From an uncultured Thermoleophilia bacterium (lineage in GTDB: Bacteria; Actinomycetota; Thermoleophilia; RBG-16-64-13): 64,000 nt of DNA. The notes beneath the pieces were generated by a model. The model was not told the DNA's origin, did not search any database, and saw nothing but the letters and a program-made list of their open reading frames with translations. Position 1 is the first letter of the stretch; the number at the start of each line of letters is the position of its first letter. The position numbers were made by a program, and so were the translations under genes. Of the stretch, positions 49,362 to 61,140 are shown one piece after another. The stretch covers positions 3,877 through 67,876 of the forward strand of contig CAVVNF010000018.1 of NCBI GenBank assembly GCA_963749535.1, in the 5' to 3' direction.

Positions 49362-51375
49362 ATGGAATTCGTCTCCTACGACATAAAGAGCAGTGACTTC
49401 GACGCGGCGGGAGCGGCTTCCAGCGCCATCAAGGAGCAGCTGAAGCGTATCGGGGCGGACGCGGAGAGCATCCGGCGCACGATGATCGCAGCGTACGAAG
49501 CGGAGATGAACGTGGTGATCCACGCGCATGGCGGCCGCCTGGAAGCCTCGCTTTCGGACGACCGCCATCGACGTCGATGTGATCGATGAGGGGCCGGGCA
49601 TCCCCGACATCGAGCTGGCCATGAAGGAAGGTTTCTCCACGGCCAGCTCCGAGGCGCGGGCCCTCGGCTTCGGGGCGGGCCTGGGTCTGCCGAACATCAA
49701 GAAGAACAGCGACCGCCTGAGGGTGACCTCCCGCGTGAGCGAAGGCACCCGGGTGAGCTTCACCGTCTACCTCAAGCGAGAATCGGCGTGTGCGCCGAGC
49801 ATCGTCTCCCTCGCTGCCTCGACGGAAGACTGCCGCGATTGCCGCCGCTGTCTGGTGGCCTGTCCGACACATGCGGTGCGGGTGAGGAACGGCCGGCCCT
49901 CTGTCCTGGAGCACCTATGCGTGGACTGCACGAGCTGTATCGCAGCGTGCTCGTCGAAGGCCCTCACCGTGCGAGACGATGTCTCCTCGTTGGCGGAGCT
50001 GAAGAACATCGGCGAACTGGTCCTGGCGGTGCCTCCCGGGCTCCTTGCCAGTTGCGGAACCGGGCTTTCCCCTGCCCGGGTTCTCCAAGGATTGCGGAGG
50101 CTCGGATTCGCGGACGTCATCACCGTGGCGCCCTTTGAGCGCGCGCTCCGGCGGGCGGTCTTGACTTCGGCCAACGAGAACGCTGGGGACGGCCCGGAAG
50201 CACGGGAACTACCGATCATATCCCCGGCCTGCCCCGCCGTGGTGAACCTCATCGAGCTCAAGTATCCTTCGCTCCTTCCGCAGTTGGCACCTTTTGACTC
50301 CCCCTGGGAGGCCCTGCAGGCATCCCAGGCCGATCGCCGCGTCGCGTACGTCGTGTCCTGCCCAGGCCAACGCTCGGTACTCGTGGCCCACGAACCGGCG
50401 GACAGCGCAGGCAGCTGCGTCGAGCCAGGTGCCGTGTATCTCTCCCCCGGCCTCGTCCGCGATGCGGTCATGGCTCTTCTGGCTGCGGAGGGCCGAGAAC
50501 CCGCGACAGCCGGGCCGGCTGGAAGCGCAAAGGCGAGCGCAGAAGGCGGGGCCGACCACTCGACGGCGGACCTCGGACACGTGCTCACCGTCACCGGCAT
50601 GGAGCACGTCATGGCTGTGCTCGAGCAGATCGAGAACGGGCTGTTGACCGATGCCGAGGTGGTTGAACTCTACGCGTGCGCAGGTGGCTGCTTCGGCTCG
50701 CCGCTCCTACCCCTGGATTTCCACGTGACTGCCCGTCGTTGGGCCCAACAGGAATCGTCAACAGCCTGCTGCGGCGAAATGCCGGCAGCGCTCTCCCGGC
50801 GGCGCCCTTACGCCGCTCGTCCGGGGATACGCCTGGACCCGGACATGGCGCGCGCCATCGAAAAGCTCGGCCGGATGCAAGCGCTCACCCGTTCGCTACC
50901 CGGCAAAGACTGTGGTACGTGCGGCGCCCCCACCTGTGCAGCGCTGGCCGAGGACATCGTGATGGGGCGAGCGACGGCTGAGCTCTGCCCCTACTGCGAT
51001 AACGAGAAGGAGGCGCGGGACATGAGACTGCAGGAGCTCGTCCAGAGCTTTGGATCTCCGGAACTCACCCCCAGCGTGGCCGGCAACAACGACGCCGAGA
51101 TCGCGTACGGCTATGCCTCCGATCTGCTCAGCGACGTGCTCGCCCACGCCCCCGCCGGCGGGGTGCTCGTCACGCTGCAGGTGCACCTCAACGTGATCGC
51201 CGTGGCGAGCCACGCTGGCCTGAGGGCCGTCATCTTCTCGTCCGGCCGCCTCCCCGAGGACGACATCTCTCCCGAGGCGGCGGACGAGGGCCTCTCTCTC
51301 TTCGTGTCACCGGCGGACACCTTCGACATCGTCGGCCGACTGTATCAACTCGGGGTGAAGGGACGGGCTACGTGA
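49362..51375 (+). CDS. multidomain Fe-S sensor-like protein: GHKL (RsbW-like) ATPase + 2x[4Fe-4S] ferredoxin + HydS-like [FeFe]-hydrogenase H-domain homolog + Cx2Cx4Cx16C Fe-S motif + DRTGG-like domain; one frame break near 49560
   Basis: GHKL: EAEMNVVIHA, DEGPGIPD, GFGAGLGLPNI. Ferredoxin: CRDCRRCLVACP and CVDCTSCIAACS. H-domain-like motifs: ISPACPAVVN (L1-like, relay Cys replaced by Ala), VVSCPGQ (L2-like), ELYACAGGCFGSP (L3-like). Fe-S motif: DCGTCGAPTCAALAEDIVMGRATAELCP. DRTGG-like tail: SDLLSDVLAHAPAGGVLVTLQVHLNVIAVASHAGLRAVIFSSGRLP. Confidence 0.8.
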
Positions 51376-51396
51376 GCCGCGCCCCACACGGAAATC

Positions 51397-52178
51397 ATGC
51401 CTGAAGGACGGACGAGATTCCATGGCAGACCGCCTGCGACATGCGCAGCGGACTTGCACATCCACACGGCGCTGTCGCCCTGTGCGGAGCGACGAGATGA
51501 CGCCCCGCGCCATCGTGGAGGCTGCCTTGGCCCGAGGGCTTGACATGATCGCCATCTGTGACCACAACAGCGCGCGCAACGCCGCCGCCGTGCAGGAGGC
51601 GAGCGGGGAACGCCTGGCCGTTCTCGCCGGCATCGAGATAACGAGCGCGGAAGAGGTCCACGTGGTCGGTCTTTTCCCCGACGCGGCCGCGGCCGAGGCG
51701 GCGGGGTCGGAGATCGCTCCGCTCCTTGGCGACGCCGATAGCGGCTACACGGCGTTCTTCGGCGAACAGCAGGTCCTCGACGCCGAGGGCCGCGTACTCG
51801 ACACCGAGACTGCGGCGCTTGCCTTCGCCACTTCGCTCGAGGTGGACGCGGTGGTCGATCTGGTCCACCGGCACGGCGGTCTGGCGGTGGCGGCGCACAT
51901 CGACCGCAGGGCTTTCAGCGTGTTCTCCCAGCTCGGGTTCTTTCCGACCGAATCGGGTTTCGATGCGGTGGAGATCACTCCGTTCACCGGGGATGATTCG
52001 CCGCGAATGGCGGAATTCGCAGGCTCTGGGCCTGCCCATGACTGCAGCTCGTCCGACAGCCACTACCTCGAAGACATCGGGGCTGCCACGACGAGACTCA
52101 CCGTCGAAGTAGCGACCTTCGCCGAGCTGGCCCTGGCTTTCGCCGGCGCCGAAGGGAGGGCGATCGGTCGATGCATGA
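51397..52178 (+). CDS. PHP-domain phosphoesterase; frame break near 51490; 3' end uncertain
   Basis: ADLHIHTALSPCAE then a shift to MTPRAIVEAALARGLDMIAICDHNSARN...GIEITSAEEVHVVGLF...AAHIDR. Confidence 0.7.
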
Positions 52179-52668
52179 TGTGTCCCTCTATCTGCTCGAC
52201 GTCGCTCGAGAACTCAGTGCGCGCAGGCGCGACGCGCATAAACGTTGGTCTTCGCATCGACCACGCTTCCGACGAGTTGGAGCTGACGGTCGATGATGAC
52301 GGACGGGGTTTGAACGTCGACCCCTGAGCGGATCCTCGATCCCTTCTTCACTACGAAAGAAGGCAAGAAGACGGGACTTGGACTAAGCCTCCTGAGAGCG
52401 GAGGCCGAAGCAGCCGGAAGGGGGGCTCACCATCGGTCCCTCCCCCACCCTCGGTGGGGCCCGAGTAGATGTCACCATGCGCCTCGGCCACGTGGACAGA
52501 CCGCCCCTCGGCGATCTGGCCACGACTCTTGTGGTCACGGCGGTGACGAACCTAGATGTCTTGTTCACTATCAGCCTCGAGGGCGATGAGTTCGGGCAAC
52601 CACTCATCGAGGCACCGCTCACCGAAGCGACCGAACTTCTCCTGCACTGCGCGGAGCGGCTCGCATGA
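52171..52668 (+). CDS. stand-alone histidine-kinase-like (GHKL) ATPase domain protein; about 3 frame breaks
   Basis: MHDVSLYLLDV.LENSVRAGATRINVGL...LELTVDDDGRGLNVDP.RILDPFFTTKEGKKTGLGLSLLRAEAEAAG (N, G1 and G2 boxes). No DHp/His box. Confidence 0.65.
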
Positions 52669-52759
52669 GGCAGCGGCAGCCCTTACCAAGAGCGAAACAG
52701 TCGAAGCGCAGCCCAGGCCCGGGGACGCGCATGTTCAGGTCGGCCAAGGAGGCAACGGC

Positions 52760-53323
52760 ATGACGGCGGAGGCAGAGAATCGGGACGTAAAGTGCACGTG
52801 CTGCGAGGAAGCCTCGGAGGAGGAACTTCTCGCACGGCTCGACGACGTCATCGCCGGTACAAGGAAAAGCCAGGAGCTCTGATCCCGGTGCTGCAGCTCG
52901 CCCAGGGCATCTTCGGGTACCTGCCCGAGGTGGCTCTCAAGCAGGTCGCGACGCGAGCATGCGCAAGCCCTACAGCGAAGTGGCCGGCGTGGTGGGCTTC
53001 TACTCGTTCTTCACCACCGTCCCGCGCGGCAAGCAACCTCATCCGCGTCTGCCTGGGCACCGCCTGCTACGTGCGCGGCGGCATGAACGTGCTCGAGTCG
53101 CTCAAGAAGGAGCTGGGCATCGACGTCGGCGAGCACCACGGAGGACCGCGAGTTCTCGCTCGAGGTCGGCTCGCTGCTTCGGCGCCTGCGGCCTCGCCCC
53201 GGTGATCACGGTCGACGACGACGTCCACCACCGCGTCAAGCCGAAGCGCGGATCCGCGAGATCCTCGCCCAGTACGCACGCAGGAAGCCTTGGAAGCTGC
53301 CGTTGCGTGAGAGGAGCGCCTGA
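52760..53323 (+). CDS. hydC: HydC / NuoE-like [2Fe-2S] subunit of a multimeric [FeFe]-hydrogenase; about 3 frame breaks
   Basis: ATG behind AAGGAGG. Motifs KPGALIPVLQLAQGIFGYLP, IRVCLGTACYVRGG, GRCFGACGLAPV (assembled across frames). Stop overlaps the next ATG (TGATG). Confidence 0.85.
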
Positions 53324-53700
53324 TGGCCGACAAGATCAAGAGTGCCGCCGACCTGCTCGCCCTGGCCCAGAAGGCCAAGGCGGACGTCGACCTGCGCTCG
53401 GGCGCCAAGGAGATCACAGGTGACCGTGCACATGGGCACCTGCGGCATCGCCGCCGGCGCCCGCGACGTGGTGGCCGCTTTCCTGCTCCGAGCTGGCCGA
53501 GGCCAGGGCTCGACAACGTGACCGTCGCGCCAATCCGGCTGCGCCGGCCTCTGCGAGAAGGAGCCCATGGTGACCGTCACGTGACGCCGACGGCGCCGTG
53601 TACCACTACGGGCTGCTCGAGACGGAGCAAGGTCCACAAGATCGTCGAGGAACATCTGGTGGGCGGGGTCCCGGTGGACGCCTACCTCATCAAGCATCGT
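53323..53700 (+). CDS. small thioredoxin-like [2Fe-2S] ferredoxin (HndB-like); frame breaks, 3' end approximate
   Basis: MADKIKSAADLLALAQKAK...VTVHMGTCGIAAGARDVVAAF ... GCAGLCEKEPMVTV ... VHKIVEEHLVGGVPVDAYL. Confidence 0.6.
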
Positions 53701-53737
53701 AGCCGTCGATGTGGATCAGAGATCGAAGGAACCAGAT

Positions 53738-56700
53738 ATGAACGAAATCAAGAACCATGTTCTGATCTGCACAGGCGGCGGCTGCATCGCCTCCGGCGCT
53801 CTCGCGGTGAGCGCCGCCTTCACCAAGGAGCTGGAGGACCAGGGCCTCGCCGGGGAAGTCGCGGTCATCGAGACCGGCTGCCTCGGCCCGTGCGCGGTGG
53901 GCCCGGTGGCCCTCGTCTACCCCGACGGCGTCTTCTACCAGAACATCAAGGTCGAGGACGTGCACGAGATCGTGGAGGAGCACCTGCTCAAGGGCCGCGT
54001 GGTCGAGCGCCTCGTGAGCCACGCCCCAGGCACCGACAAGACCTTCGCCGAGATGCAGCGACGTGGAGTTCTTCAACCGCCAGGTGAAGATCGTGCTGCG
54101 CAACTCGGGCATCATCGACCCGCTCAAGGTCGAAGAGTACATCGCCCGCGAGGGCTACCAGGCGCTGGCCAAAGTCCTCACCGAGATGACCCCCGACCAG
54201 GTGGTCGAGCGAAGTGCTTCGCAGCGGCCTGCGCGGCCGCGGCGGCGCCGGCTTCCCCACCGGCCTCAAGTGGAAATTCGCCCGGCAGACCGAGTCCGAC
54301 GTCAAGTACATCCTCTGCAACGCCGACGAAGGCGACCCGGGCGCCTTCATGGACCGCTCGGTGCTGGAAGGCGACCCGCATAGCCTCATCGAGGGCATGG
54401 CCATCGGCGCCTACGCGATCGGCGCGCACGAGGGCTTCGTCTACCTGCGCGCCGAGTACCCGCTGGCCGTGGAGCGCCTCCAGTACGCCATCGACCAGGC
54501 GCGCGACTTCGGCCTGCTCGGCAAAGACATCATGGGCAGCGGCTTCGACTTCGACCTGGAGATCCGCATGGGCTCCGGCGCCTTCGTCTGCGGCGAGGAG
54601 ACGGCCCTCATGAGCTCCATCGAGGGTGGCCGCGGCGAGCCCCGGCCCCGCCCGCCGTTCCCGGCGGTCAAGGGTCTCTGGGACAAGCCCAGCGTGCTCA
54701 ACAACGTCGAGACCTTCGCCAACATCGCCCCGATCATCCTCAAAGGCGCGGAGTGGTTCGCCAGCACCGGCACCGAGAAGAGCAAGGGCACCAAGGTCTT
54801 CGCCCTCGGCGGCGCCATCCAGCACGCCGGCCTGGTCGAGGTGCCCATCGGCATGCAGCTGGGCGAGATCATCTACGAGATCGGCGGCGGCGTCCCCGGC
54901 GACAAGGCGTTCAAGGCCGTGCAGCTCGGCGGCCCTTCCGGCGGCTGCATCCCCAAGCAGCACCTCAACGTGCCCGTCGACTACGAATCGCTGCAGGAGC
55001 TCGGCGCCATCATGGGCTCCGGCGGCTTCATCGTCATGGACGACGACACCTGCATGGTGGACATCGCCCGCTACTTCCTCGACTTCATCCAGGACGAGAG
55101 CTGCGGCAAGTGCCCGCCCTGCCGGGTCGGCACCAAGCGCATGCTCGAGATCGTCACCCGCATCTGCAACGGCGAGGGCGAAGAAGGCGACATCGAGAAG
55201 CTCATCGACCTCGGCAAGACCATCCAGGACACCGCGCTGTGCGGCCTCGGCCAGACGGCGGCCAACCCGGTGCTGTCGCACCATCCGCCACTTCCGCCAC
55301 GAGTACGAGGCCCACATCCGCGACCACTACTGCGAGGCCGGCGTCTGCTCGACCATGTTCAGCGCTCGCTGCTCCAACGCCTGCCCGGCGAGCGTGAACG
55401 TCCCCGGCTTCGTGAGCCTCATCGGCGAGAAGCGCTTCGACGAGGCCTTGACGCTGCACCGCGAGCGCAACCCGCTGGCCAGCATCTGCGGCCGCGTGTG
55501 CTTCCACCCCTGCGAGAGCAAGTGCCAGCGCGCCGCCCTCGACGACGCCGTCGCCATCCGCGGCGCTCAAGCGCTTCATGACCGAGCAGGAGAACGACGC
55601 CGCAACTGCCGAAAGTCCTGGAAAACGCCGAGAACGCCACGCGCAAGATCGCCGTGATCGGCAGCGGGCCGGCCGGCCTCTCCTGCGCCTACTTCCTCGC
55701 CCGTCTGGGCTACAAGCCCACCATGTTCGAGAAAGAGGCCAGCCCCGGCGGCATGCTCGTGCAGGCGATCCCGGCCTACCGCCTGCCGCGGGAGGAGCTC
55801 GGCCGCGAGATCAGCATGATCGAAAGCATGGGCGTCACGATCAAGACCGGCAAGGCGCTCGGCCGCGACTTCACCCTGCACAGCTGAAAGACCAGGGCTA
55901 CGAGGCAGTGTTCCTGGGCGTGGGCGCCCCGCAGGGCGTCGAGCCTCGGCCTGCCCGGCGAGGATGGCGAGGGCGGTCAGTCGACGGCTCTCAGCTTCCT
56001 CGCGCAGTACAACGTGCACGGCGACCGCCTGGGTGGGCGAGCAGGTCGCCGTCATCGGCGGCGGCAACTCGGCCATCGACGCGGCCCGCACCGCCCTGCG
56101 CCTCGGCGCCAAGAAGGTCACCATCCTCTACCGCCGCCAGCGCGCGCAGATGCCCGCCTGGGCGAGGAGATCGACGCCGCCGACCTCGAGGGCATCGAGA
56201 TCATGCCGCTGGTCGCGCCCGAAGGAGATCGTCCGCGACGCGGCCGGCAAGGTTACCGGCGTGCTCTGCCAGCAGATGGTGCTGGGCGACTACGACAGGA
56301 GCGGCCGTCGCCGTCCCGTGGCCGGCCGCAATCCCGACTTCATCGTGGCGTGCGACCAGGTCATCGCCGCTATCGGGCAGTCGCTCGACGCAGACAGGCA
56401 TGCTCGGAGGCTCTTCCGCTCGAGATGCGCAACGGCTGGATCAAGACCGATCGGGCCGACCGGCGCCACCAGTCGTCGACTGGGTCTTCGCCGGCGGCGA
56501 CGCCGCGACCGGTCCCGCATCGGTGGTGGAGGCCATCGCCGCCGGCGAGAAGGCCGCGGTCGCGATCGACGAACGGCTGAGCGGTGCCAACCATGCGTTC
56601 TGGCGCCGCGACGTGGAGGTCGACTGCTACTTCGATCCCGACGCCGATCCCTGCAATACCCCGAGCGGCGGTCGTCGGCTGTGTCGACCCCAGCGTGCGG

Positions 56701-56822
56701 ACCTGCAGCTTCGACGAGGTCGAGCTGCCCTGGGATATGGATGTCGCGCTGGCAGAGGCCAAGCGTGCCTGCGTTGCGACTACGGCAAGGTCCCGGCCCT
56801 CGCTGAGACCAAGGAGATATGA
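53738..56822 (+). CDS. hydB: HydB/NuoF-like flavoprotein subunit fused to a GltD/NfnB-like NAD(P)H oxidoreductase domain; at least 12 frame breaks
   Basis: N-terminal Trx-like [2Fe-2S]: [15 protein letters not shown]...[10 protein letters not shown]. NuoF core: [37 protein letters not shown] continuous ORF piece runs across the junction: [82 protein letters not shown]. GltD-like motifs follow: [67 protein letters not shown]. Confidence 0.85.
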
Positions 56823-56823
56823 G

Positions 56824-58609
56824 ATGCCTGCCCTGACTATTGACGACATCAAGGTCGAGGTGCCCGAAGGCACGACCTTGCTCGACGCCTGCCGCCAGGT
56901 GGGCGCCAGGGTCCCCACTCTGTGCTACCTGGAAGGCGTGCAGTGCCATCGGCGCCTGCCGGGTGTGCCTGGTGGAGGTGGAAGGCGCGCGCGACGCTGG
57001 TCGCCTCCTGCGCTCAACCCGCCACCGAGGGCATGGTGGTCAAGACCAATTCGCCTCGCGTGCGCAAGGGCCGGCAGACCGTGGTCGAGCTGCTCCTGTC
57101 CGAGCACGACGGCGATTGCCAGACCTGCGACCGCAACGGCGACTGCGAGCTGCGCCAGCTTGCCTACGACCTGGGCATCGACGAGATCACGCTACGAGGG
57201 CGAGCGGACCCGCAAGATCGTCGACAGCTCCACCCCGGCCCTCGTCCGCGACACCGGCAAGTGCATCATGTGCCGGCGGTGCGTCACGGTCTGCAACGAG
57301 ATGCAGGGCGTGGGCGCCCTCTTCCCGCAGGATCGCGGCTTTGCCACGGTAATCGGCCCCGCGTTCGCCAGCAACCTCAGCGACGTGGTGTGCGTGCAGT
57401 GCGGCCAGTGCGCGGCCGTCTGCCCCGTCGGCGCGATCACCGAGAACAGCGCGATCGACCAGGTCTGGGCCGCCCTCGACGACCCCGACCAAGCACGTGA
57501 TCGTGCAGACCGCGCCCGGCCATCCGCGGCGCTCTGGGCGAGGAGTTCGGCTACGAGCCCGGCACGCTGGTCACCGGCAAGATGGTCGTCAGCCCTGCGC
57601 CGGCTCGGCTTCGACGCGGTGTTCGACACCAACTTCACCGCCGACCTCACCATCATGGAGGAGGGCACCGAGCTGCTGACCCGCCTGAAGAAGGCCCTGG
57701 TCGACGGCCAGACCGGTGGCGCTGCCCATGTTCACGAGCTGCTCTCCCGGCTGGATCAACTACATGGAGCACTTCAACCCGGACATGCTCGCCAACCTGT
57801 CCACCTGCAAGTCGCCCGCAGCAGATGTTCGGCGCGCTGGCCAAGACCTACTACGCCGAGAAGCTGGGCAAGAAGCCCGAGGACATCGTCGTGGTCTCGG
57901 TCATGCCGTGCACCGCCAAGAAGTTCGAGTGCAGCCGTCCCGAGATGACCGACAGTGGCGTGCAGGACGTCGACATGGTGCTCACGACCCGTGAGCTGGC
58001 GCGCATGATCAAGCAGGCCGGCATCGACTTCGCAGCCTGCCCGACGACAAGATGGACGCGCCGCTGGGCATCTCGCACCGGCGCGGCCGACATCTTCGCC
58101 GTCACCGGCGGCGTGATGGAGGCGGCGCTGCGCACGGCCTACGAGATCGTCACCGGCAAGCCGTTCCCGTTCGAGAACCTGCACGTCAAGCCCATCGCAG
58201 GGCCTCGAAGGCGTGAAGGAGGCCGCGGTGACCGATCGAGGACGACCGTGCCCGAATGGGCGTTCCTCGAGGGCGCCACGCTCAAGGTCGCCGTGGCCCA
58301 CGGCCTGGCGAACGCCCAGAAGGTCATCGACAGGATCCGCAGCGGCGAGGCGCCAGTACCACTTCGTCGAGGTCATGACCTGCCCCGGCGGCTGCATCGG
58401 CGGCGGCGGCCAGCCGCGGCTGACCTCCAACGCCGTGCGCGAGGCCCGCATCCGCGCCATCTACGCCGAGGACGAGGGCCGCGAGCTGCGCAAGTCGCAC
58501 GAGAACCCCGAGGTGCTCAAGCTGTACGAGGAGTTCCTCGGGGCAGCCGCTCGGCGAGAAGTCTCACAAACTGCTGCACACCAAGTACACCGAGAAAGAG
58601 CGCGTCTAG
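56824..58609 (+). CDS. hydA: [FeFe]-hydrogenase catalytic subunit (M3-type with C-terminal small-subunit-like tail); at least 8 frame breaks
   Basis: N-terminal clusters: IGACRVCLVEVEG, LLLSEHDGDCQTCDRNGDCELRQ, GKCIMCRRCVTVC, VCVQCGQCAAVCPVGAI. H-cluster motifs: FTSCSPGW, VMPCTAKKFE, EVMTCPGGCIGGGGQP. Tail: SHENPEVLKLYEEFLG. Confidence 0.9.
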
Positions 58610-58644
58610 TGAGCCAAGGCCCGATGCTATTCGTGGAGACAGCC

Positions 58645-59109
58645 ATGACCGCGGATAGCCCCGCACTCATACTCATCGTCGACGACGACTATGACTTCCT
58701 CGAGATCAACCGCATGATCCTCGAGCGGGCGGGTTATCGCGTTGTCACGGCTTCCGAGCCCGGCCAGGCCCTTGCCAAGATGGAGAACGAGAAGCCCGAC
58801 CTGGTCATCACCGACCTGATGATGACGAGCCTCGACTCAGGCTTCTCGTTCTCCCGCACGATCAAGACCGACCCGCGTTTCGCGGATGTGCCCGTCATCA
58901 TCTCGACGTCGGTGTCGAGCGCCCTTGGCCTCGACTTCCGGCCGCGCTCCGCCGAGGACCTGGCGAAGATGAACGTCGACGCCTACTTCGACAAGCCCCT
59001 CGACGCCCGGCGCCTGCTGGCCAAGGTCGCCGAGCTGCTTGCGGCGCGGCGCGAGGCCGCGGCCGGCCGAGCGTGCGACACGGCCGGCGCCGCACCCGAG
59101 GACAGCTGA
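58645..59109 (+). CDS. single-domain response regulator (receiver only); alternative start 58624
   Basis: LILIVDDDYDFLEI...PDLVITDLMM...VPVIISTS...DAYFDKP. Confidence 0.8.
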   Translation: MTADSPALILIVDDDYDFLEINRMILERAGYRVVTASEPGQALAKMENEKPDLVITDLMMTSLDSGFSFSRTIKTDPRFADVPVIISTSVSSALGLDFRPRSAEDLAKMNVDAYFDKPLDARRLLAKVAELLAARREAAAGRACDTAGAAPEDS

Positions 59110-61140
59110 TGCCGACGGTAGACAATCCGCTCGTCACGACCATCGGCGAGAGGTGCCGCATGTGCTACGCGTGCGTGCGCGAGTGCCCGGCCAAAGCCAT
59201 CCAGATCGTCGACGGCCAGGCCAGCGTCATCCAGTCGCGCTGCATCGGCTGCGGCAACTGCCTCCGGGTCTGCAGCCAGAACGCCAAGCAGGTCCGTCGA
59301 CGACACCGAGCGGGCTTTCGACCTGCTCGGCTCGCGCGACAGCGGCCGCGGCGATCGTGGCCCCGAGCTTCCCGGCCGAGTTCACCGATATCGAGCCGGG
59401 ACGGCTGGTGGCGATGATCCGCGAGCTCGGCTTCGCCGTCCGTGCACGAGGTGGGCTCTCGGCGCCGACCTGGTCGCCCACGAATACGCCAGGCTGCTCG
59501 GAGCGCGAGCCGACAGAGCCGCTACATCGCCACTCCCTGCCCGGCGGTGCAGTCGCTACGTGCGCAAGTATCACCCCGAGCTCACGCAGTTCCTCGGCGC
59601 CGATCGTCTCGCCCATGGTGGCGATGCGCGCGGGCGCTCCGCCACGATCTGGGCCGACGATCTTCAAGTCGTCTTCATCGGCCCCTGCATCGCCAAGAAG
59701 GGCGAGGCCAGCATCGACACGACCCATGTCGAGATCGACGCGGTGCTCACGTTCGCGGAACTGCGCGAGATGTTCGAGCAAGCGGAGATCGTCGCCGGCG
59801 CGGTAGACCCGGACGATGATTTCGATCCTCCGTACGGCGGCGTGGGAGCGGTATTTCCCATCTCGGGCGGACTTCTGCAGACCGCCGGACTTCAACAGGA
59901 CCTGCTGAGCGGTGAGATAGTCGTGGCCGAGGGGCGCGACGAGTTCGTCGATGCGATCAAGGAGTTCGACGTGGCCCACGAGGATGCCCGTCTCTGGACG
60001 TGCTGTCGTGCCAGGGTTGCTTCGCAGGCGTAGGCATGACGACCAAGGATACGAACCTCCAGCGCCGGACCCGCATCAGCAACTATGCCAAGAACCGGAT
60101 CGCCGGATTCAGCGACGAGCAGAGAGCGGACGTCGCCAACGCGTACGAACGTTATGCCGACCTCGACCTTTCCCGCACGTTTCGGCCCGACATCCAGACG
60201 CTGGGCGCGCCTGCGACCGCCGAGGAACTCAAGGAGATCCTGCGAGCGGATGGGCAAGCACAGCGAGGAGGACTTGCTCAACTGCGGGGCCTGCGGCTAC
60301 GACACCTGCCTGGACCATGCGCGTGCGGTTTACGCTGGTGTCGCCGACTCAGAGATGTGCCTTCCCAGCACCATCGAGCAGCTGCGCGCCGCCTACGGCC
60401 AGCTCGAGGAGTCTCACCGCTCGCTGGAGGAAGCCAAGGAAGCTCTCGAGAAATCGGGCAGGCTCGCGAGCATGGGTCAGCTGGCCGCCGGCATCGCCCA
60501 CGAGGTGAACAATCCGCTCGGCATCCTGCTGCTGCATGCCAATCTCGTGCTCGAAGAATGTGAGGAGCAATCCCAGGTCCACGAGGACCTCGAGACCATC
60601 GTCGACCAGGCGAACCGCTGCAAGCGCATCATCTCCGGTCTGCTCAACTTCGCCCGCCAAAGCCGGGTGGTCCGCCAGCCGACCAACCTCGTCGATCTGG
60701 TGCAGAAGGTACTGCACACCACTCCGATCAGCGAGGGCATCGAGGTGCGGGTCGACGACCAGCTGGAAGACCCGGTGGCCGAGATCGACTCGGATCAGAT
60801 AGTCCAGGTGCTTACGAACTTGTTGAGCAACGCCCAGCACGCGATGCCCGAGGGCGGCAGCATCGTGGTCGGATTGAGCGACAAGCCGGAAGAGGTCATC
60901 ATCCAGGTCACCGACAGCGGCAGCGGGATCCCGGACGAGAACATGGCGAAGCTGTTCGACCCGTTCTTCACCACCAAGCAGGTGGGCATGGGCACCGGCC
61001 TGGGGCTGGCCGTGACCCACGGCATCGTCAAGATGCACCGCGGCCAGATCACGGTCCAATCCAACCAGGATCCGGAAAAGGGCCCGACCGGCACCACATT
61101 CACGGTCAGCTTGCCGCGTTACGAGGAGCGCCCGGCCTAA
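59109..61140 (+). CDS. sensor histidine kinase whose input is ferredoxin + HydS-like H-domain homolog + Cx2Cx4Cx16C motif; at least 5 frame breaks in the N-terminal half
   Basis: Ferredoxin: CRMCYACVRECP and CIGCGNCLRVCS. H-domain-like motifs: IATPCPAV (L1-like), VVFIGPCIAKKGE (L2-like), DVLSCQGCFAG (L3-like). Fe-S motif: NCGACGYDTCLDHARAVYAGVADSEMCLP. A coiled coil leads straight to the kinase: H box AAGIAHEVNNPL, N box LLSNAQHAM, G1 DSGSGIP, G2 GTGLGLAV. TGATG overlap with the receiver gene. Confidence 0.8.

Follow-up and report, generated by a model that had tools for sequence, protein, structure and literature searches.

We find that a 64,000-nucleotide stretch of DNA (the window) from an uncultured Thermoleophilia-like actinobacterium carries the operon hydC-hndB-hydB::gltD-hydA, in which the HydB subunit of a HydABC-type [FeFe]-hydrogenase is fused to a GltD/NfnB-like module. 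Sequence comparison shows that the mobile, ferredoxin-like B3/B4 domain of HydB has been swapped for an NADPH:FAD:2x[4Fe-4S] module of ~480 residues. That hydB::gltD is one gene with this architecture is close to certain, and our main reading of its function, to which we give a probability of roughly 45%, is that the enzyme exchanges H2 with NAD(H) and NADP(H) independently of ferredoxin, the branch that usually leads to ferredoxin serving NADP(H) instead.

hydB::gltD is a single gene in a noisy stretch of sequence

The fused gene occupies positions 53738..56822 of the plus strand (as do all features below) and comprises ~1023 codons, from an ATG at 53738 (MNEIKNH...) to a TGA at 56820-56822, stitched together from 18 frame pieces. 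Relative to the orthologue L002, which is 92% identical in nucleotides, the gene contains 15 insertions (14 of one base and one of two bases) and three one-base deletions. Eighteen frame-disrupting indels within 3.1 kb could speak for an artefact, be it a mis-assembled chimera, a pair of separate genes or a pseudogene in decay, but the same unbroken fusion is present in a same-genus genome (matching residues 1-1023 with no stop), in eight other genomes of the same family and in two class-level relatives; across many phyla, more than 45 loci carry it. Moreover, alignment to L001 showed that indel rates of 7-16 per kb are limited to 51-60 kb (the 54-55 kb bin, at 4 per kb, being lower) and fall to at most one per kb in the flanks, and that this 9-kb patch hits the neighbouring genes as well. 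The substitutions relative to L002 are mostly synonymous, and the 92% nucleotide identity, set against the 96-100% identity of the window protein to the orthologue P0001 across the first 608 residues, points to purifying selection. Local errors of assembly or sequencing explain the frame breaks best, and we dropped the pseudogene, two-gene and chimera readings, which we consider extremely improbable, on the intact orthologues, the synonymous substitutions and the confinement of the indels.

A preliminary description of this DNA had argued that the fusion is a single subunit and no product of the frame breaks, and this holds: an uninterrupted frame piece (55280-55564, with CSNACP within it) spans the NuoF-GltD junction, and none of the intact orthologues has a stop and restart corresponding to 55.3-55.6 kb. 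Among at least 8000 candidates scored, intact orthologues with the full architecture (1017-1040 aa) were numerous, with 96-100% identity within the aligned segments and a frame that is continuous across the junction.

The operon encodes a full set of HydABC-type partners

The partners BfuC and BfuA are both represented in the operon, by hydC upstream of the fusion and by a hydA with H-cluster motifs downstream of it. The frame-broken hydC (52760..53320, end approximate), encoding a NuoE/BfuC-like [2Fe-2S] subunit, was located by tblastn with the L002 HydC, which matches at 100% over residues 1-31 and at 73% over residues 33-124; PF01257 was found on the 184-aa HydC orthologue. It is followed by a gene for a small thioredoxin-like, HndB-like subunit (53323..53700, end approximate), also frame-broken, whose ORF starts MADKIKSAADLL and matches the L002 HndB; the same position in L001-L003 holds a 125-aa gene, the length of the intact orthologues. 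The M3-type [FeFe]-hydrogenase catalytic subunit gene hydA (56824..58614, end approximate) begins with an ATG at 56824, just after the hydB::gltD stop, and is frame-broken as well, with the H-cluster motifs TSCSPGW (57734), MPCTAKKFE (57903) and EVMTCPGGCIGGGGQP (58369); the 590-aa HydA orthologue contains the domains Fer2_4, NADH-G_4Fe-4S_3, Fe_hyd_lg_C and Fe_hyd_SSU. The complete HydC/HndB/HydA set named in the preliminary description is thus present. In TSCSPGW, a serine takes the position of the second cysteine of CpI; we considered this an oddity of the window HydA and dropped the idea, as a serine is usual at this position in HydABC-type HydA genes of the compared loci.

A Rex/HydS regulatory cassette (HydS, DRTGG, PHP and HATPase) surrounds the operon. 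The host genome, which is high in GC, also encodes a separate StnABC-like cluster (G000:C15:53.8-58.3 kb) and other GltD-like paralogues.

Residues 1-540 correspond to a bifurcating-type HydB core

Pfam matches on the frame pieces placed the domains where the preliminary description had put them, and by alignment residues 1-540 form a HydB/BfuB core of the bifurcating type. An N-terminal thioredoxin-like [2Fe-2S] domain (53750..53980; PF01257, 2Fe-2S_thioredx, 1.4e-7) carries the B5 site with Cys11, Cys16, Cys48 and Cys52, all four of which occur in 34 of 45 fused proteins. The NuoF FMN/NADH-binding domain (54220..54729; Complex1_51K, PF01512, 2e-45) is ~60% identical to A. woodii HydB by Foldseek, with the FMN/NADH loops seen in the alignment, and the NADH_4Fe-4S helical domain (55060..55278; PF10589, 3.3e-28) supplies the B1 [4Fe-4S] cysteines C455, C458, C461 and C501, which are invariant in the 45 fused and 28 canonical proteins compared. 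The core matches HydB/BfuB of seven solved bifurcating complexes with E values of 1e-180 to 1e-235, and target-normalised TM-scores of its AF2 model range from 0.82 to 0.97. This similarity stops at residue 540-545, straight after EAHIRDxxCxAGxC.

The last element of the core is a hinge (55280..55348) with His525, Cys531 and Cys536, which together with Cys438 correspond in the alignment with 7q4v_B, 8a6t_B and 8oh5_B (A. woodii, T. kivui and Stn HydB) to the Zn/B2 site, whose role in bifurcating BfuB has been described (PMC12018979). All four residues are 100% conserved. This bears on the reading that the enzyme is a non-coupled dual-cofactor hydrogenase, in which NADH at the FMN and NADPH at the FAD would serve the H-cluster independently of each other, as alternative donors or acceptors and without energetic coupling; it would resemble Hyd1ABC of Syntrophomonas wolfei, which is NADH-dependent and non-bifurcating, extended by a port for NADPH. 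Such an enzyme would fit with the loss of B3/B4 described below, which takes away the canonical low-potential exit, and with HydABC enzymes whose short HydB has neither end domain, as found in the L003 relative and in the organism's own genome. However, the hinge histidine is reported to be missing from non-bifurcating homologues (PMC12018979), and it is retained here together with HydC and, in this lineage, the B5 cysteines, which speaks for continued use of the gating machinery. We therefore regard the non-coupled reading as improbable.

A GltD/NfnB-like NADPH module takes the place of the ferredoxin-like tail

The module begins seven residues past the hinge, at the exact place of the 2x[4Fe-4S] tail, as the preliminary description had proposed: the motif CX2CX2CX3CP, which is present in one or two copies in each of 28 canonical HydB proteins, is found in neither the window protein nor any of the 45 fused proteins. 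In a MAFFT alignment the canonical B3/B4 cysteines fall on those of the Fer4_20 dicluster domain with which the module opens (55322..55564; PF14691, 7.6e-16, covering profile positions 16-99 only; C544, C548, C583, C587, C591 and C595). A first Rossmann motif, VIGSGPAGL (55645..55803; NAD_binding_8, 7.3e-10; Pyr_redox_2, 8.2e-8), is predicted to bind FAD and has G640, G642 and G645 invariant, and a second, GGGNSA...YRR (56000..56158; second Pyr_redox_2 match, 7.4e-7), is predicted to bind NADPH. YRR is found in 44 of the 45 fused proteins, and the window protein shares the longer motif YRRxxxxMPA with the NADPH-specific StnC and NfnA. The predicted sites for FMN/NADH and FAD/NADPH, like the two dinucleotide motifs and the terminal RCLRC, agree with what the preliminary description had recognised.

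The C-terminal segment (56662..56822), which contributes C1006 and C1009 and has RCLRC at its end, resembles the N-terminal element of Fer4_20 in permuted position. When this segment is moved before the start of the module, the Fer4_20 match extends from 19-110 (75.6 bits) to 4-110 (93.8 bits), and only then is the full profile matched. The segment aligns with ...RCLECG of 9bov_A, 9n5u_A and 8oh5_C, and its pLDDT in the AF2 model is 83-94. The module thus appears to be circularly permuted, with its RCLxC motif at the C-terminus, as in StnC/NfnA. The eight cluster cysteines (C544, C548, C583, C587, C591, C595, C1006 and C1009), K610, R680 and both Rossmann motifs are conserved across the 45 fused proteins. 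The AF2 single-chain model (pTM 0.85), in which the junction has no low-confidence linker, confirms the domain folds at the level of prediction.

In searches with residues 543-1010 the best PDB matches were 9bov_A (1e-106), 9n5u_A and 8oh5_C, which outrank NfnB, NfnL, DPD and GltD. The module thus seems nearer to the non-bifurcating module through which NADPH enters in StnC/NfnA than to NfnB of NfnAB, and the Nfn-like function that the preliminary description saw built into the hydrogenase is not favoured, because Nfn chemistry needs ferredoxin and the docking domain for ferredoxin is precisely the missing part.

Ferredoxin could nevertheless still be a substrate that docks on the distal [4Fe-4S] cluster, with FAD/NADP(H) as an extra port, so that the enzyme would handle four substrates (H2, NAD, NADP and ferredoxin) as a hydrogenase with an integrated transhydrogenase, in the sense of the preliminary description. 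In NfnSL electrons leave for ferredoxin through the dicluster domain of NfnB/NfnL, and the module also matches these proteins (5jca_L and 4ylf_B). [quoted passage not shown] On the other side, ferredoxin binds at the B3/B4 domain in Tsi NfnABC (PMC12018979), and the fused protein is without the ferredoxin-like domain that builds the observed site together with the C-terminal domain of NfnC. The resemblance of the module is also closest to the Stn/NfnA type, with a non-bifurcating FAD and clusters that feed inward, and the genome already has the StnABC-like complex and the other GltD-like paralogues. On balance, a retained role for ferredoxin seems to us unlikely, if somewhat less so than the non-coupled enzyme.

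A candidate electron path between H2, NAD(H) and NADP(H)

According to our main reading, electrons would pass between the H-cluster of HydA and the B1-FMN-C1 centre of HydBC through the Fe-S chain of HydA, and NAD(H) would react at the FMN of HydB. The canonical low-potential branch runs from C1, on HydC, through B3/B4 to ferredoxin; in the fused enzyme it would instead lead from C1 through the distal and then the proximal [4Fe-4S] cluster of the GltD module and on to FAD and NADP(H). With the C1 branch ending at FAD/NADP(H), H2 would be linked to both pyridine-nucleotide pools without ferredoxin, according to 2 H2 + NAD+ + NADP+ <-> NADH + NADPH + 2 H+, and the two half-reactions would probably be coupled at a flavin/cluster site. 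The coupling of H2 to both the NAD and the NADP pools that the preliminary description suggested is plausible. A Nernst calculation based on the E' values of PMC9304861 is in favour of our main reading: the mean of NADH (-280 mV) and NADPH (-380 mV) is -330 mV, which equals the H+/H2 couple at ~1.4e-3 bar H2, whereas NADH alone corresponds to ~3e-5 bar. Against it, NADP(H) is a two-electron carrier that lies only ~100 mV below NAD(H), which makes bifurcation far harder to justify energetically than with ferredoxin.

A more specific version, which we put forward tentatively and hold to be possible at best, is a ferredoxin-independent Bfu branch, in which the B1-FMN-C1 centre would split the electrons of H2 to NAD+ (high-potential) and NADP+ (low-potential), or merge those of NADH and NADPH into H2. 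If true, this would be the first bifurcating enzyme with pyridine nucleotides as both outputs, and its BC module would work with FdhA and GltB-like partners as well.

The fused class is large and widespread

Full-length fusions are spread over considerably more than a dozen phyla and also turn up in archaea, alongside HydA, FdhA or a GltB-like protein, and the HydB::GltD design is thus widespread in anaerobes, forming a large class. The fusion is less novel than the preliminary description implied, as it is common, visible in databases and already mentioned in the literature, and the window adds one poorly sequenced member; its gain by itself is modest. In the full-text literature searched, including the Bfu, Stn and NfnABC papers, we found the BfuB-GltD fusion undescribed except for one sentence in Greening et al. 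(2024; PMC11216029), and no biochemical study of any member of the fused class. The label 'NADP-reducing hydrogenase subunit HndC' on some orthologues looks like a generic homology-based name and gives no sign that the GltD module was recognised. The class raises the question of whether H2, formate or other substrates can be linked to both nucleotide pools, NADH and NADPH, independently of ferredoxin. Were this so, models of redox metabolism would have to be revised for many uncultured anaerobes, since their 'HydABC' genes are at present annotated as NADH/ferredoxin enzymes.

Comparison with known systems

The archaeal HydB with a GltA domain likewise joins a NuoF-like part to one resembling the glutamate synthase small subunit, modelled on 7E5Z_B and 7MFM_I, and belongs to hybrid [FeFe]/[NiFe] complexes whose partners (a HydA-HyhS fusion, HyhL and HydD) are unlike those of this operon (Greening et al., 2024; PMC11216029). 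That domain is known from an AlphaFold model only and was proposed as a ferredoxin site, the main text making no mention of NADPH or FAD. StnABC/NfnABC (S. ovata 8OH5, C. saccharolyticus 9BOV and T. sibiricus 9N5U) have in common with the fused system the BfuBC core and the type of NADPH module, down to the '...EAxRCLxC' at its C-terminus; the Stn module conducts electrons from NADPH to Fe-S clusters without bifurcating them (PMC10482914). There, however, the module sits in a BfuA-like subunit that has no H-cluster, and the ferredoxin domain of BfuB is kept, whereas here the module is on BfuB, which is without B3/B4, and BfuA is a true HydA with the full set of three H-cluster motifs; assignment to StnABC/NfnABC failed on these points. 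NfnB/NfnL (4YLF_B and 5JCA_L), GltD (2VDC_G) and domains I-III of DPD share fold and cofactor motifs with the module (E = 1e-85 to 1e-49) but carry the RCLxC element at the N-terminus instead of the C-terminus; the FAD of NfnB is a bifurcating flavin that requires the NfnA/S partner, which is absent from the hydB::gltD operon.

The group A2 'glutamate-synthase-linked' [FeFe]-hydrogenases (HydDB class) also tie a GltD-like NAD(P)H module to an [FeFe]-hydrogenase, and combine HydA with a separate GltD, but are not known to have HydB or HydC. The preliminary description had pointed to the GltD-linked class in this context; we rejected membership in group A2 on gene arrangement, with HydC, HndB and the HydB core all present and GltD a domain of HydB, and assign the enzyme to HydABC (A3/Bfu-type). 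HndABCD of Solidesulfovibrio (Desulfovibrio) fructosovorans shares with the operon the four-gene layout and a small HndB-like subunit, but its HndC ends in the canonical ferredoxin domain and is not known to carry a GltD module.

Also close are the electron-bifurcating HydABC enzymes (A. woodii 7Q4V/8A5E, T. kivui 8A6T and T. maritima 7P5H; Bfu Type 1), which share HydC, the HydB core (~48-60% identity over HydB residues 5-543 by Foldseek, with the FMN/NADH loops, the B1 and B5 cysteines and the Zn/B2 hinge), an M3-type HydA and the same regulatory cassette. The difference lies in their C-terminal B3/B4 domain, with two CX2CX2CX3CP motifs and the proposed ferredoxin site, which the fused protein is without. 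Enzymes of the HydABC type set the H2/NADH/ferredoxin balance of anaerobes, and their mechanism is actively debated; as the current structural model places ferredoxin at B3/B4 of the B subunit and the fused class replaces exactly B3/B4, this class offers a ready-made test of the role of the low-potential branch.

hydB::gltD reads as one fused gene across a fragmented stretch of the assembly

The gene hydB::gltD spans positions 53738-56822 on the forward strand, where 18 frame pieces stand in place of a single long open reading frame. The stitched protein has 1018 residues, and Pfam places along it, in order, a thioredoxin-like [2Fe-2S] domain, Complex1_51K (2e-45), SLBB, NADH_4Fe-4S (3e-28), Fer4_20 (8e-16), an FAD-type Rossmann motif and a second, NAD(P)H-type Rossmann motif, so that the NuoF part, the GltD-type Fe-S domain and the two dinucleotide-binding motifs named in the preliminary description were all recovered from the stitched frames. 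The junction from NuoF to GltD, which that description had read through one ORF piece, indeed lies within an unbroken frame piece (55280-55564), and the observation as a whole is confirmed.

Among the best 120 of at least 8000 candidates found with the stitched protein, most are intact proteins of 1000-1060 residues with the complete domain set, and one database match (P0001) is 96-100% identical to the window protein over the first 608 residues. The DNA is 92.4% identical to the orthologue at locus L002, relative to which it carries 15 insertions (14 of one base and one of two), nearly all of them an extra C or G, and three one-base deletions. High protein identity at 92% DNA identity indicates purifying selection and is not expected of a gene with 18 real frameshifts. 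When 18.3 kb of a second orthologous locus, L001 (93% identical), was aligned to the window, the density of frame-disrupting indels was 7-16 per kb over most of the stretch from 51 to 60 kb, with 4 per kb between 54 and 55 kb, and at most one per kb in the flanks at 45.6-51 kb and 60-64 kb. Within the same patch, hydC, hndB, hydA and portions of the sensor gene are broken too; no frame change is needed to align Rex, DRTGG or the response regulator. Judged by this alignment, the assembly looks locally unpolished at positions 51000-60000. The fusion itself was found in a same-genus genome (stop-free match over residues 1-1023), in eight more same-family genomes (stop-free over nearly the full length) and in two class-level relatives, whose matches are also near full length, one with a single TAA within the aligned stretch. 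On the strength of these sequence comparisons, we conclude that the frame breaks in hydB::gltD are artefacts; that the fused reading is itself the artefact is highly improbable.

A Bfu-type HydB core carries an NADPH module

Residues 5-543 match the B subunits of solved electron-bifurcating (Bfu) complexes with E-values of 1e-180 to 1e-235 and, by Foldseek, about 48-60% identity, namely A. mobile NiFe-HydB, the HydB of A. woodii, T. kivui and T. maritima, StnB, the NfnB of C. saccharolyticus (Csac) and T. sibiricus (Tsi) and the BfuB of W-aldehyde oxidoreductase. This likeness ends directly after the hinge, the His/Cys Zn/B2 site EAHIRDxxCxAGxC. The AF2 model of the protein (pLDDT 89, pTM 0.85) gave target-normalised TM-scores of 0.82-0.97 against these same chains in Foldseek. 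Across the HydB proteins of the fetched loci, 45 fused and 28 canonical, the cysteines of the Fe-S site B1 and the hinge residues His525, Cys438, Cys531 and Cys536 are invariant, and all four B5 cysteines are retained in the window's lineage; the hinge His is characteristic of Bfu B subunits and missing from non-bifurcating homologues (PMC12018979). The CX2CX2CX3CP motif of the ferredoxin-like domain occurs at least once in each of the 28 canonical proteins and in none of the 45 fused ones.

Residues 543-1010 are closest to the NADPH module of Csac NfnA (9bov_A, 1e-106), Tsi NfnA and StnC, followed by T. maritima NfnB, P. furiosus NfnL, DPD and GltD, an order that Foldseek reproduces. The module conserves eight cluster cysteines (C583 in 38 of the 45 fused proteins), a Lys and an Arg equivalent to StnC K170 and R239, both Rossmann motifs, and the YRRxxxxMPA 2'-phosphate motif common to experimentally NADPH-specific Stn and Nfn-Bfu enzymes. 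The Pfam Fer4_20 match begins only at profile position 16-19, and the missing start ('...F.EV....A..EA.RCL.C') was found at the extreme C-terminus of the protein. Placing this C-terminal segment before 'ARCSNACP' restored a CxxC-x5-C-x3-CP motif and extended the match to profile positions 4-110, with a gain from 75.6 to 93.8 bits. The alignments of StnC and of both NfnA chains run through the same segment, to '...RCLECG'. Since the rejoining works and StnC and NfnA share the segment, the module is apparently of the permuted, insertable kind that Nfn-Bfu enzymes use, a picture that fits the Stn GltD domain, described as an insertion in a NuoG-like subunit (PMC10482914). A plain GltD appended to NuoF was rejected, the Fer4_20 start lying at the C-terminus as in StnC/NfnA.

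By MAFFT, the canonical B3/B4 cysteines fall on those of Fer4_20; in Foldseek, the alignments with the HydB of A. woodii and T. kivui extend beyond the hinge (565-576 columns); between the last Cys of the hinge and the first of the module lie only seven residues; and the AF2 model has no low-confidence linker at this junction. Their agreement suggests that the dicluster domain of the module sits in the B3/B4 position.

A shorter relative is encoded on contig C26 of the source genome (17200-19130). Like the database proteins P0219, P0246, P0250 and P0254 (about 650 residues), it matches residues 403-1010 only, combining the NuoF C-terminal 4Fe-4S helical part with a permuted GltD module, without the FMN domain; proteins of this kind seem to be what NCBIfam NF009410 (PRK12771) models.

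Operon context, distribution and phylogeny

In the clean relatives L001-L003, the gene order is rex(-DRTGG), a hydS-like sensor with an RsbW-type ATPase, DRTGG, PHP, HATPase, hydC (184 residues), hndB (125), hydB::gltD (1023), hydA (590), a response regulator and hydS::histidine kinase, and the window has the same order. Its hydA, whose ATG begins one base past the hydB::gltD stop, has all three H-cluster motifs. The L1 motif (57734-57754) reads TSCSPGW, with Ser replacing the second Cys of the usual CC pair, as in most HydABC-type hydA genes among loci L001-L083, of which only five have TSCCPGW (L006, L010, L070, L077 and one more).

In species-representative genomes, a scan found full-length fused genes in Actinomycetota, Nitrospirota, Verrucomicrobiota, Bacteroidota, Spirochaetota, Armatimonadota, Thermodesulfobacteriota and other 'delta' lineages, several Bacillota orders, Chloroflexota, Omnitrophota, Planctomycetota, Acidobacteriota and two archaeal MAGs, including a Lokiarchaeon; an Atribacterota copy (L050) is open only to about residue 607. 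Among the best 150 matches of an all-against-all HMMER comparison, full-length matches of about 1000-1130 residues fall into at least ten 50%-identity clusters. No NCBIfam model covers the fusion, a NuoF model alone scoring just over its cut-off, and orthologues consequently bear generic names ('NuoF', 'FAD-dependent oxidoreductase', 'HndC'). The preliminary description had also proposed a phylogeny of the NuoF part: a quick maximum-likelihood tree of the NuoF core, from a sample biased to the best 80 matches, requires at least four switches between fused and canonical forms. The window's clade lies within a set of 11 rows of mixed phyla (SH-aLRT 98), nine full-length fused genes and two contig-truncated copies running beyond the hinge, and HydA comes next in every one of these rows whose contig reaches far enough.

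The fused BC pair has HydA as its neighbour in many loci, FdhA-type molybdopterin subunits in L023, L026, L038 and L042, and a Fer2_4 protein with a GltB-like FMN protein in L021 and L043. At L021:4050-6424 and L043:11054-13351 (Lokiarchaeon Loki_b31), the genes after fused NuoF::GltD and hydC encode a Fer2_4/Fer4 protein and a PF01645 (glutamate-synthase FMN domain) protein of 526-540 residues, and no hydrogenase; the set may be a NuoEF-GltD-linked GltB-like enzyme. In L023:11416-14205 and L026:11067-13766, the FdhA-type subunit is broken into two ORFs at one shared position, consistent with an in-frame selenocysteine TGA. At L029:8098-15570 and L050:7537-14920, two HydC/HydB pairs in succession, one GltD-fused and the other with a HydB matching residues 1-529 only, precede a single hydA; these could be alternative BC modules or parts of one larger complex.

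Proposed electron path

In the Bfu model, mid-potential electrons arrive via BfuA at the B1-FMN-C1 site, with NAD+ reduction at the FMN, and a mobile HydC/NfnC domain moves low-potential electrons from C1 to B3/B4, the domain at which ferredoxin binds (PMC12018979, PMC10482914). In Stn, the homologous NADPH module connects NADPH/FAD with Fe-S clusters as a simple wire and does not bifurcate (PMC10482914). Taking this path and the wire-type module together, the most economical reading would be that NADP(H) is connected to what was the ferredoxin branch, and that the enzyme would couple H2 to NAD(H) and to NADP(H), ferredoxin not being needed, a tentative reading to which we give a probability of about 0.45. 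The Nfn-like function of the preliminary description, in which ferredoxin still docks on the distal cluster, agrees with the assumption made by Greening et al. (2024), and we consider it unlikely; that interpretation is partly supported: the fused hydrogenase subunit stands, and the function is ranked below the ferredoxin-independent link. With E' of about -280 mV for NAD and -380 mV for NADP (PMC9304861), Nernst arithmetic gives a combined couple of -330 mV that balances H+/H2 at about 1.4e-3 bar, compared with about 3e-5 bar if NADH acts alone and about 0.07 bar if NADPH does, so coupling of NADH and NADPH would have a modest but real thermodynamic meaning. An enzyme that uses both cofactors without coupling them is a slightly more doubtful alternative still.

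The source genome holds five NuoF paralogues and several GltD-like modules. Outside the window, an StnABC-like cluster (contig C15, 53800-58300) encodes a HydC-like protein, a HydB-like protein (residues 2-540) and a subunit joining a HydA-type N-terminal [2Fe-2S] part to a GltD-like module, and would be a Bfu-type transhydrogenase. About 4.5 kb beyond the window end (contig C18, 72400-76000) lie a second HydC, a short HydB matching residues 141-521 only and a HydA, which may be of the non-bifurcating HydABC type; L003 likewise has a short-HydB HydABC set downstream of the fused operon. A NuoEF and NuoG-like set follows at 81.2-84.2 kb of C18. Given the StnABC-like cluster and the other paralogues, the hydB::gltD enzyme is not needed for transhydrogenation.

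Relation to known systems

The HydB::GltD protein represents a variant of Bfu-type HydABC hydrogenase that is widespread, and to which the window contributes one poorly sequenced actinobacterial member; we found no biochemical characterisation of the variant in the literature. The Stn and NfnABC structure papers make no mention of a BfuB fusion. Greening et al. (2024) modelled the HydB of archaeal hybrid hydrogenases on NuoF plus the glutamate synthase small chain (PMC11216029), in a main text from which the words NADPH and FAD are absent. The Bfu classification assigns the Nfn-like domain to BfuA and treats B3/B4 as conserved (PMC9304861). Canonical Bfu HydB has a ferredoxin-like domain, whereas hydB::gltD is built without it.
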